Origin: a virus
IMG/VR virus record: IMGVR_UViG_3300049847_000198
Coordinates: 32,001-96,000 of that record
Direction: 5' to 3' (one strand)
Length of the DNA stretch: 64,000 nucleotides
Part shown: piece by piece, positions 20,414-29,274 of the stretch
Layout of the letters: each line of letters opens with the position of its first letter
How positions within the stretch are numbered: the first letter of the stretch is position 1
The notes under the pieces: model-generated
What the model saw: only the letters and a program-made list of their open reading frames with translations
Databases searched by the model: none
Told to the model about the DNA's origin: nothing
Translations under genes and position numbers: made by a program

Positions 20414-20414
20414 C

Positions 20415-20513
20415 GCCGCCTCCGTTGAGAATGAGGCGGCAGGTTAGCCGAAAAACGACGGGCGTGTCATCGTTGCGTATTTGGAGTGCCGCGCGGCACC
20501 TGAGTTTCGGCTA
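20415..20513 (-). promoter_or_regulatory. Structured tape-measure leader: three-way junction plus SD-sequestering hairpin
   Basis: TAGCCGAAA/TTTCGGCTA closing stem with two inner hairpins; GCCGCCTC/GAGGCGGC hairpin covers the GGAGG. Confidence 0.55.
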
Positions 20514-22052
20514 CGCCGGAACGACTGCGACTGTCGGCGATAGGCGGGACTGCCGAAAGCAGTCAACGAGACACTGCTCAGCGAACTTTGCGTCCGACTC
20601 CGTCACCAACAGGCTATCGTGGATCGTGCCAAGAAAACGCTTCGGTCTCGCCTTGAGGAACGCGGCAGCAGCTTTGTGGATCACGTACTGGCTTTCGATG
20701 TTCTGGAGTAGCTTCGGTAAGACCGAGTGATGTGACCGCTTCAAGGTGCAGATGATCTTCCAGACGTGAGGAAATTCCCTGACAAACAAATCTCGGAACA
20801 GGCGACCCGGAACGTCTTCTTTTTCGCAGAAGATGCACTCTCTGAAGAATGTCTGTTTGAACTCATGCCGAGCCATTGATGCGTAGCTGGTGCCAGCAGG
20901 CACTAGCTTTTGGAAGTGATCGTAGAGTTGGCCTTCACAGCAGAGCGTGATGTACCGCTCGCACTCTTTCCAGTGATGCTTTACCAGCCTGATCGCCGAC
21001 AGAACATCGCTTTCGATGCTCTTGCTCAGAGGAACTGCCGAAGTCGGTTCTTGGTACAATTCCTGTGTGTTTTTGCAGTCAAAATCACCGTAAGTCGTTT
21101 CTTTAGTTGATTTTTCGTTAGATTGTTGCATCATAAGGGTGTGGGAGGGAGAGGGGCTTTCCTGCGGTTGTGTGGCGTTGTCTTGTGCGTTTGTTACATT
21201 TCGCGTCAGACGTTCAGTTGTGACTTTAGCTACACTGTAGTCGTTTTGTAATGAGTACCGTTCGATCTTGTGTATCAACTCACGTACCTTGTCAGACTCC
21301 ACGGTGTCGCTGAGGTTGAAAAGAAACATCAACAGACATCCGAAGATGAACGGCTGGCTGTTTCGGACATCGGTGTTCCAGAGTGATTCTCCGTGCCATC
21401 GCAGGTATTGCCGCAGGTCCGAGGACAGGTTCGTTAGGTTACTATGAACTCGCCCGTACTTGTCTTCCATCAAAAAGAATTGATGCGTTGAGATCATGGT
21501 GATGCTTGACTCGTCCATCCATTGAGCGAACTTCGGGTTCTTGGTTGCCGAATAGTCCTTGGCGAATCGCACATGCCGCAGAGCCGCTGGCGTGTCGATT
21601 TCCAGCCCTCTAAGCAGTTGGTACAGGGATTTGATCGTCGGACTTGAGAACCTGTCCTGCTGATCGTTTCGGAACTTGTCGATCTTGCGGTTCAAGCGGC
21701 GGTTCTTGACCGGACGGATTACTCCGTAGGCGTATCGGAATGTGCCTGTCATGCGGTAGCTCCTTGAATAAAAACCAGCCCTATAGCTCAGATCGACCTC
21801 GATGACACCATTTTCTCTAAGCCAGTCGATCCACTTCGAGAGTCTCTTCCACGAAACGACCTCCCGTAGCTTGTCGATCTTCAAGTAAACCCAATCGTCC
21901 GGGTCGTATCGCCGCGAGTCGTGCATGAATCGCCCGTAGACGCAGTGAACGATGTAGGCGGCTTCCTCCCAGTGCTTCGAGAGTTCTGGCGGCGCACGAC
22001 TGGCGATATCCAGCGTTTCAGGCAGCGTCAGATATCTCTGCGTCCAAGCCAC
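20511..22052 (-). CDS. Family-A-superfamily (TV-Pol-like) nucleic acid polymerase with N-terminal winged-helix-like region
   Basis: YGRVHS, motif A NTDVRNSQP, motif B RHEFK (RxxxK), LQNIES and motif C TIHDS, all in order. Confidence 0.7.
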   Translation of the reverse strand: MAWTQRYLTLPETLDIASRAPPELSKHWEEAAYIVHCVYGRFMHDSRRYDPDDWVYLKIDKLREVVSWKRLSKWIDWLRENGVIEVDLSYRAGFYSRSYRMTGTFRYAYGVIRPVKNRRLNRKIDKFRNDQQDRFSSPTIKSLYQLLRGLEIDTPAALRHVRFAKDYSATKNPKFAQWMDESSITMISTHQFFLMEDKYGRVHSNLTNLSSDLRQYLRWHGESLWNTDVRNSQPFIFGCLLMFLFNLSDTVESDKVRELIHKIERYSLQNDYSVAKVTTERLTRNVTNAQDNATQPQESPSPSHTLMMQQSNEKSTKETTYGDFDCKNTQELYQEPTSAVPLSKSIESDVLSAIRLVKHHWKECERYITLCCEGQLYDHFQKLVPAGTSYASMARHEFKQTFFRECIFCEKEDVPGRLFRDLFVREFPHVWKIICTLKRSHHSVLPKLLQNIESQYVIHKAAAAFLKARPKRFLGTIHDSLLVTESDAKFAEQCLVDCFRQSRLSPTVAVVPA

Positions 22053-22199
22053 GGATCATCCCGAATCGTTCGAGGATGCCGATTTCTCGTGGCCAACAAA
22101 GAACGATAGCCACACGTCTCCGACAACGTATGGCTACGCCCTGAAATAAAGCCCGTAGGCTGTTGTTCCCTGTCCATACCGAGTCGGAGTTCGGCATCC
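22053..22199 (-). ncRNA. Structured cis-regulatory RNA leader of the polymerase gene
   Basis: Five nested helices found by eye plus an alternative SD-occluding hairpin. Confidence 0.55.
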
Positions 22200-22201
22200 A
22201 G

Positions 22202-22230
22202 ATTATGCCGCTGCCGTCCGCTCGGATCAA
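22202..22230 (-). promoter_or_regulatory. Sigma70-type promoter of the polymerase gene
   Basis: TTGATC-N17-CATAAT. Confidence 0.6.
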
Positions 22231-22292
22231 GTCAAACCTATCATTCTCTGGTTTTCAGTAAAACGAACATCGAGTTACGGGAGATTCCCGAT

Positions 22293-22565
22293 TTACTGGC
22301 CAGCCGTTGAAGAAATCGCTGCACTCTGAAAGAACGGATTGTTCGGATTGGCGAACGCAGGCGGGTCGTCCATGCGCACCTTGTACCGGAACTTCATCTT
22401 TTCGGGATCGACCATGACGACTTGGTCTTTCCATTCGCCGCTGATGAAGAAGAACGGCTTCTGACCGCATTCGTCTCGCTTGAAGTTGCCGGCATTGACT
22501 GCCAAGAAATTCTTGTCGCCGTTCATGGCATAGACGGTTCGCAATCGCACTCTACTCATCGGCAT
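22293..22565 (-). CDS. Hypothetical protein
   Basis: 90-aa ORF overlapping the HU stop. Confidence 0.6.
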   Translation of the reverse strand: MPMSRVRLRTVYAMNGDKNFLAVNAGNFKRDECGQKPFFFISGEWKDQVVMVDPEKMKFRYKVRMDDPPAFANPNNPFFQSAAISSTAGQ

Positions 22566-22854
22566 ATTCCTTTTTTGCCAGTGCCGTGAACTTCCTCGCC
22601 AGCGTCGCTGAGGTGTTGAACTTAACGATCAGATTGTCAGGCACTTGAACGCTCTCCCCGGATCGTGGGTTCCTCGCCTTGTGTCCGGCACGCAGACGAA
22701 CCTCAAAGACTCCGAGTCCTCTGACATCCACTCGGCGTTCCTCCTCCAGAGAAGCGACGATCGCCTTGAATGTTTTCTCGACGAGTTCCCTGGTCTTCTT
22801 CTCGGTCAGACCAGTCATGTCCGAGATGGTTGCAATCAGTTTTTTGTTGAGCAA
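22552..22854 (-). CDS. hup: HU/IHF-family histone-like DNA-binding protein
   Basis: NKKLIATIS...VDVRGLGVFEVRLRAGHKARNPRSGESVQVP...VKF signature. Confidence 0.92.
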   Translation of the reverse strand: MLNKKLIATISDMTGLTEKKTRELVEKTFKAIVASLEEERRVDVRGLGVFEVRLRAGHKARNPRSGESVQVPDNLIVKFNTSATLARKFTALAKKEYADE

Positions 22855-23048: not shown

Positions 23049-23111
23049 CACTAGCCAGACGGGATTGGTTCTGCCCACGAGTGCTCTTTCTGGCCTTGAG
23101 ACACATTAAAA

Positions 23112-23183
23112 TGCGACGTGACGGAATCGAACCGCCTTTCAGGGAGTTGAAAATCCCTTGCATGACCAATCTGCCAACGCCGC
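23112..23183 (-). tRNA. tRNA with an 8-nt anticodon loop (UUUUCAAC); identity ambiguous (UUC Glu or UCA opal); no encoded CCA
   Basis: GCGGCGT/ACGTCGC acceptor stem, D arm with GG, AGGGA/TCCCT anticodon stem, GGCGG-TTCGATT-CCGTC T arm. Confidence 0.8.
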
Positions 23184-23189
23184 ACGAAC

Positions 23190-28506: not shown

Positions 28507-28534
28507 ATTTTACCAAAACGAACAAGGAACGCAA
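28507..28534 (-). promoter_or_regulatory. Sigma70-type promoter with extended -10
   Basis: TTGCGT-N16-TAAAAT with TG at the extended position. Confidence 0.55.
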
Positions 28535-29189: not shown

Positions 29190-29274
29190 AATGATGACCA
29201 CTTGACTGTTTAATCTCCAGTGAATACAAGGCTGCCATGAATCATCATGGCAGCCTTTTTCTTTTGGAGAACTA

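Follow-up and report, generated by a model that had tools for sequence, protein, structure and literature searches.

A strongly folded, start-occluding leader upstream of a TV-Pol-like polymerase gene in an uncultured phage

Leaders that sequester the ribosome-binding site of the following gene are known from several phages: the hairpin of the lambda N leader is processed by RNase III, and RNA phages possess hairpins at their start sites. To our knowledge, both the biological role and the regulation of the TV-Pol-like enzymes are poorly understood. Members of the TV-Pol family comprise 400-600 amino acids and have a beta-hairpin arginine, two palm aspartates and an RxxxK motif in the fingers, and no exonuclease (PMC2579912). 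The leader analyzed here precedes the gene of a polymerase-like protein (P0001) and combines a terminator-like hairpin with a second hairpin at the start of that gene. The window is a stretch of 64,000 nucleotides comprising bases 32001-96000 of the 112,081-bp IMG/VR virus record IMGVR_UViG_3300049847_000198, which belongs to an uncultured phage.

On the minus strand, the genes for a CsrA homologue, a beta-clamp-like and a MazG-like protein, a tRNA, an HU-like protein and P0002 are followed by a gap of 240 nt, the polymerase-like gene and an open reading frame of 1641 codons (Table 1). No homologue of P0002 was detected in any polymerase-related locus searched, and the idea of a conserved gene pair consisting of P0002 and the polymerase was dropped for this reason. 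The tRNA has an anticodon loop of eight nucleotides (UUUUCAAC) and, according to ARAGORN, the four-base anticodon UUCA; it may read opal or quadruplet codons. P0001 did not match any entry of Pfam or PHROG. It has 129 homologues, whose N-termini are consistent with the GTG start, and its AlphaFold model reached a pLDDT of 87. All 50 matches listed by Foldseek for this model are family A DNA polymerases of the Klenow type, with E-values starting at 3e-4 and TM scores that are low (0.25-0.3). Across 55 sequences, the residues R201, D228, K399 and D479 do not vary, and the same applies to R395 within the closer set; both the length of 513 amino acids and the four invariant residues fit the published description of TV-Pol (PMC2579912). 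Because the structural matches point to family A and the invariant residues fit TV-Pol, the label polymerase is a fair one for this predicted TV-Pol-like, family-A-type enzyme.

Table 1. Features of the leader and its surroundings. Positions refer to the window unless genome or locus coordinates are indicated.
Feature	Position	Strand	Remarks
Leader, intergenic, 240 nt	22053..22292	-	Between P0002 and P0001; from ORF map and translations
P0002, 90-aa gene	22293-22565	-	Upstream neighbour of the leader; scores as coding
P0001, 513-aa polymerase-like ORF	20511-22052	-	GTG start; directly downstream of the leader
1641-aa ORF		-	Downstream of P0001
HU/IHF-type DNA-binding protein gene	22552-22854	-	Pfam Bac_DNA_binding, 76 bits; two genes upstream of the leader
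tRNA gene	23111-23184	-	About 1 kb upstream of the leader
Beta-clamp-like gene and MazG-like gene		-	Between the CsrA homologue and the tRNA
csrA homologue P0123, 81 aa	26396..26641	-	Pfam CsrA, 35.8 bits (cut-off 27)
Hairpin T	22101..22142	-	Core 22137-22106, 13 pairs, 2 of them G-U; terminator-like
Hairpin S	22047..22094	-	Outer stem 22094-22088/22053-22047 pairs the GTG itself
P1, 5' arm	22191..22199	-	Pairs with 22074-22082 (9/9); competes with the inner stem of S
P2	22089..22113	-	22113-22107 with 22095-22089; uses the T 3' strand and the S 5' strand
P3/P4, 5' arms	22174..22189	-	Pair with 22118-22133, the 5' strand and loop of T
ACAGGGA motif	22167..22173	-	Between hairpins
Sigma-70-like TTGATC-N17-CATAAT	22202..22230	-	9/12 matches; not in the phage's own promoter family
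Degenerate copy of promoter box GTTCGTTTTGGTAAAAT	22252..22268	-	Spacer kept; -10 reads TGAAAA; no -35
Promoter-family copies	Window 28523, 5896, 22268; genome 6252, 19997, 86162, 105404, 109983, 111484	28523 (-), 5896 (+), 22268 (-)
Leader ORFs, 70 aa (TTG) and 59 aa (ATG)	22230/22197-22018	-	Open frames
19-codon ORF in the polymerase frame	GTG 22115 (22113-22115) to TGA 22058-22056	-	TGA 3 nt before the polymerase GTG
GAAAGGC examples	Window 3884, 6966, 25700, 34980	25700 (-), 34980 (-)
P0006, second TV-Pol-like gene	Genome 105470-107242; locus L002 1501-3276	+	Same phage; 37-40% identical to P0001

Minimum-energy folding of the minus strand revealed that the ground state of the leader RNA consists of two strong local hairpins, named T and S. 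The core of hairpin T amounts to -19.1 kcal/mol and is followed by CGUUCUUUGUU, the extended stem to -23.7 kcal/mol, followed by UUUGUU (22100-22095). T has a pair probability of 0.93 in the ensemble, ranks second among the hairpin-plus-U-run elements of the 112-kb genome and contains a GGA in its loop (CGGAGA). It lies 156 nt past P0002, the last gene of the upstream block, and 54 nt before the GTG start of the polymerase gene. In hairpin S (-21.2 kcal/mol), the inner stems CAUCC/GGAUG and CGAA/UUCG pair the weak GGGA Shine-Dalgarno sequence (22062-22059). An initial annotation of this DNA had already described the CAUCC/GGAUG hairpin over this site; it was recovered with a pair probability of 0.96 for the inner stem. 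The annotation had covered the inner part of S only, without the outer stem and without T. Among the start regions of 118 genes, that of the polymerase gene is the third most stable. The most stable one (20414-20470 on the minus strand, -23.5 kcal/mol), in which a GGAGG is paired, belongs to the 1641-codon gene. As this gene directly follows that of the polymerase, occlusion of the start is a repeated feature of the gene block. The polymerase gene also lacks the usual ribosome site of the phage, GAAAGGC or GAAAGGA, and possesses GTG and GGGA as start codon and Shine-Dalgarno sequence. This usual site is strongly over-represented before open reading frames: GAAAGGC occurs 42 times in the genome, compared to about 14 copies expected, and 24 of the copies directly precede open reading frames of at least 40 codons.

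The folding of the leader exceeds chance. Compared to dinucleotide shuffles, the sense strand yielded z-scores of -3.36 (196 nt), -2.90 (160 nt) and -4.09 (154 nt), and in a GC-adjusted fold scan of the whole genome, on the minus strand, the leader took rank 21-23 among 2798 windows, i.e. it belongs to the top 1%, together with about 20 other genome windows that fold equally well. Its plus strand was placed around rank 800 in the same scan (z -0.55). When the plus strand was compared to shuffles, a z-score of -2.28 was obtained, and its best fold (-50.4 kcal/mol) is the mirror image of the multi-helix fold proposed by the initial annotation; the helices P1, P3 and P4 of that fold are thus strand-symmetric inverted repeats. 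T and S, unlike these three helices, rely on G-U pairs that only the sense RNA has; T, S and P2 have four G-U pairs between them, each of which is possible on the sense strand only. The leader is a strongly folded, sense-strand-specific RNA structure.

The helices P1 to P5 had been proposed by the initial annotation as a multi-helix fold that excludes the hairpin over the Shine-Dalgarno sequence. All of them exist on the minus strand, P1 with 9/9, P3 with 7/7, P4 with 6/6 and P5 with 5/5 pairs, P1 being entirely Watson-Crick paired, and P2 with 7 bp including one G-U pair. A repeat search independently recovered P1, P3 together with P4 (13/16 pairs) and, in addition, the core of another hairpin. 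In a transcript spanning 22197-22044, the proposed fold reached -48.9 kcal/mol and is thus about 14 kcal/mol weaker than the minimum of -63.0 kcal/mol; P1 to P5 had an ensemble probability of 0.0. P5 was absent from every computed fold, and P2 was seen only once the ground-state pairs were forbidden. Under this restriction, the best fold consisted exactly of P1, P3, P4 and P2, again with -48.9 kcal/mol, a marginal value (z -2.29) that was reached by 4 of 150 shuffles. Hence, two mutually exclusive sets of helices are present, one of which hides the Shine-Dalgarno sequence as had been claimed, but the multi-helix fold is the weak state and not the favoured one. It is a metastable alternative.

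Four segments of the leader (22138-22118, 22113-22107, 22095-22089 and 22082-22074) have two alternative partners each. The 5' arms of P3/P4 are a candidate antiterminator, because the partner sequence holds the 5' strand and the loop of T. When growing transcripts were folded, P3/P4 (13/16 pairs) was the minimum-energy pairing while the 3' end of the chain lay at 22118-22112. Once the 3' end reached 22106, P3/P4 was displaced by T, P1 appeared transiently at 22072-22060, and S formed last. Thus, as in an attenuator, the antiterminator pairing overlaps the 5' strand of T and forms first in the simulated transcripts. A dependence of this folding on the promoter, with upstream 5' ends blocking P3/P4, was ruled out; the order was the same whatever 5' end was used. 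Both the anatomy and the folding order allow a two-state reading, in which T is gone and the ribosome site free in one state, and both are locked in the other.

The sequences TTGATC-N17-CATAAT and ACAGGGA, which the initial annotation had read as a promoter and a CsrA-type motif, are both present. The former is the sole sigma-70-type match within 4 kb, but one match found against 1.9 expected from shuffles is chance level. The phage has a promoter family of its own, TTGnnn-N5-GTTCGTTTTGGTAAAAT, whose spacer is conserved and whose -10 element is extended; about ten good copies exist, most of them before genes. At up to four mismatches, 16 matches were found, compared to 2-4 in shuffles, and most are located 30-60 nt before a start codon. 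In the leader, the 9-nt core of the box is present at 22268-22260; usable -35 and -10 elements are absent there. A hairpin of 10 bp at 22256-22298 on the minus strand (9/10 paired) links the region of the P0002 stop codon with the GTTCGTTTT box. On the strand of the leader, a 17-mer scan detected a perfect box at 28523 and no other good copy between this position and the leader. Terminator scores were -38 for the core of T and -4.5 (borderline) for extended T, compared to +24 and +14 obtained for two clear phage terminators, and the U-run of T is interrupted. The clearest intrinsic terminator of the genome is located at 29228-29257 on the plus strand; it has an 11-bp stem and UUUCUUUU, and lies 17 nt before the next gene on the same strand.

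A comparison with Rfam gave no family match in 21900-22400 even at E-values up to 10; the only match in the window was the tRNA. A covariance model, built on the leader sequence with its ground-state structure and applied to 99 loci with related polymerases (484 kb) and to the paralogue, retrieved only the leader itself. An exact-pattern scan for T found nothing, and there are no repeats of the helix arms elsewhere in the genome. Contigs encoding a relative with more than about 32% protein identity were found neither in IMG/VR nor in the JGI metagenomes (searched with P0001 and family alignments) nor in a phage database, and the latter contained no DNA match. In the protein database, the closest proteins (P0004-P0008) are 33-39% identical to P0001. 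As no homologous leader was found in the collections searched, there is no covariation for or against the structure. The upstream regions of distant homologues are heterogeneous; strong folding (z of at most -3.7) was seen in 5 of 21, and in several of these, a hairpin with a U-run lies near the start codon or borders on it. The second TV-Pol-like gene of the phage, P0006, also has a strongly folded leader (genome 105400-105577, about 180 nt, z -3.5), in which a hairpin with UUUUU precedes a small hairpin at the start codon, similar to the arrangement in the P0001 leader. The upstream gene is divergent here, and the leader diverges from a box-type promoter. The two leaders have no sequence similarity, the covariance model did not match the P0006 leader, and the latter has no significant alternative fold. 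The suggestion that the RNA might be a non-coding partner of the polymerase found no support in these data, in that the leader of the paralogue differs and the model finds nothing elsewhere. With regard to RNAs of the retron or DRT type, no conserved RNA was found in the related loci searched, and P0001 is predicted to be family-A-like and not a reverse transcriptase. Of the initial idea of an undescribed riboregulator, the folded, start-occluding leader has stood; a new RNA family found no support, and a switch is conceivable but rather unlikely.

We prefer the reading, though with slightly less than even confidence, that the leader belongs to the leftward mRNA and, as a structured element acting in cis, keeps expression of the TV-Pol-like polymerase low. 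Transcribed as part of one RNA, T and S would form independently of each other in the stable state. T would pause or partly terminate RNA polymerase arriving from upstream and so lower read-through, or it would protect the 3' end of the upstream mRNA. S would pair the GGGA sequence and the GTG codon and lower translation; from this pairing of both Shine-Dalgarno sequence and start we infer that ribosomes would rarely initiate. P3/P4 and then P1 would form first during RNA synthesis and be displaced later. This reading is favoured by the stability of the sense-strand fold, the high ranks of T and S, the missing usual ribosome site, the GTG start consistent with the homologues, the folded leader of P0006, and leader ORFs that have no homologues and only intermediate codon scores. 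It is weakened by the chance-level sigma-70 match, the incomplete promoter box, the interrupted U-run of T, the absence of homologous leaders from the collections searched and the roughly 20 other windows that also fold well. If the gate works in this manner, the leader exemplifies how a stand-alone TV-Pol-like polymerase is kept in check by an uncultured phage. Being a single orphan sequence without relatives, the leader adds a candidate and not a new principle.

Another explanation, which is unlikely, is that T is a mere terminator of the upstream replication operon, reaching from the promoter at 28523 to P0002, that S and the other helices are incidental, and that the polymerase gene is expressed by leak-through or from an unrecognised promoter. 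The perfect box on the same strand, with no other good copy before the leader, the position of T 156 nt after the last gene of the block and the hairpins with U-run near the start in several of the five strongly folded regions among 21 distant homologues are all consistent with such a terminator. On the other hand, the 54 nt between T and the GTG leave no room for a recognisable promoter, the U-run of T is weak compared to the clear phage terminators, and S, which would have to be incidental, is sense-strand specific and among the three most stable start regions.

Rather unlikely, too, is a true two-state riboregulator, in which the P1/P3/P4/P2 fold would be the ON state, doing away with T and freeing both the Shine-Dalgarno sequence and the GTG, T plus S would be the OFF state, and a trans factor such as the phage CsrA, the polymerase or another ligand would shift the balance. 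The fold obtained with forbidden ground-state pairs is exactly the one proposed initially and stronger than that of 146 of 150 shuffles, four segments of the leader have two alternative partners each, and P3/P4 is the minimum-energy nascent pairing before the 3' strand of T emerges. However, the ON fold is weaker by about 14 kcal/mol and has an equilibrium probability of 0.0. P1, P3 and P4 form equally on the antisense strand and could therefore be inverted repeats at the DNA level. Moreover, no Rfam aptamer was matched, reading of the sequence revealed no convincing leader peptide with a ribosome site, the paralogue leader is devoid of a significant alternative fold, and no relatives were found that could show covariation.

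With regard to the trans factor, P0123 keeps the LVLTRK (LTR(R/K)) and REEIY regions, which we take to be those with the RNA-binding role in CsrA, and this retention speaks for a riboregulator. Its gene has its own promoter-like site (TTGCGT-N18-TAAAAT) and an AAAGGA ribosome site. The motif argument of the initial annotation is not above chance: ACARGGA occurs 28 times in the genome, compared to about 27 copies expected, and is not concentrated in leaders. Four GGA are present in the leader versus 2.3 expected, and 22% of the 150-nt windows have at least four, while the GGA of the Shine-Dalgarno sequence is paired within S and not displayed. An enrichment of CsrA motifs in the leader was therefore rejected, and the lack of GGA enrichment also argues against a riboregulator. 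P0123 is a possible trans factor for the leader, and because the phage encodes this homologue, the CsrA idea stays testable. It is conceivable, but improbable, that the leader acts as a bistable gate, in which formation of P1/P3/P4/P2 would abolish T and unmask the ribosome site, and P0123 or the polymerase itself would choose the state. If this were true, the doses of the primase-polymerase and of the downstream 1641-aa gene product would be tied to the infection programme. The leader, the phage CsrA and the polymerase would then make up a compact test system.

Very improbable is a small RNA in its own right, about 100 nt long, that would extend from the TTGATC/CATAAT promoter to T and perhaps titrate the phage CsrA. 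The promoter-like match, which precedes a terminator-like hairpin by about 60-100 nt, the GGA in the loop of T and ACAGGGA between the hairpins would fit such an RNA, but the promoter is at chance level and T is a borderline terminator. There are also only 3-4 GGA, a density reached by 22% of the windows, and neither an Rfam match nor relatives were found. For comparison with sponges of the CsrB/Rsm type, these 3-4 GGA lie in about 100-150 nt, whereas the maxima of the genome are 10-11 per 150 nt and located elsewhere.

Still a little less credible is a DNA-level element, in which the inverted repeats would either be bound by a protein, e.g. a GTTCGTTTT-box factor or the HU-like one, or serve the polymerase as a site of replication or priming. 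The inverted repeats P1, P3 and P4 show perfect Watson-Crick pairing and are mirrored by the best fold of the plus strand, and a copy of the dispersed box is located at 22268-22260. The most stable helices, T and S, however, need G-U pairs that exist in the sense RNA only, the cumulative GC skew has its turning point at about 12-14 kb and not at the leader, and the helix arms are not repeated elsewhere in the genome. Least probable of all is a coding leader, giving rise to a small protein that opens S or to a 19-codon peptide coupled to, or read through into, the polymerase via the UCA-carrying tRNA with the 8-nt loop: both longer leader frames are open, the in-frame TGA precedes the GTG by 3 nt and the tRNA with the loop UUUUCAAC lies 1 kb upstream, but the frames have no usable ribosome site, the extension is unlike the N-termini of the homologues, and a coding reading was rejected on the absence of homologues and on codon scores intermediate between those of shadow ORFs and real genes.

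The preferred reading of a cis-acting leader that keeps polymerase expression low can be compared with three kinds of described systems. The CsrA/RsmA-repressed leaders of glgC, hag and hcnA have in common with this leader a GGA in the Shine-Dalgarno sequence and others upstream, here one of them in the loop of T, and the phage possesses a CsrA homologue. What separates them is the number and quality of the GGA, which are at chance level here, and the position of the Shine-Dalgarno GGA in a long stem. With the attenuators (trp, pyrBI and protein-mediated ones), the leader shares a terminator-like hairpin whose 5' strand has an upstream partner which pairs first. Contrary to those systems, it has no leader peptide, aptamer or known protein site, its U-run is interrupted and the upstream promoter is uncertain. 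To the phage leaders that sequester a ribosome-binding site, there is no sequence or family relationship, and the leader described here has no established processing site, trans factor or coupling ORF. As in those leaders, a long imperfect hairpin pairs the Shine-Dalgarno sequence and the start of a dosage-sensitive gene, and pairing with an upstream segment could free it.
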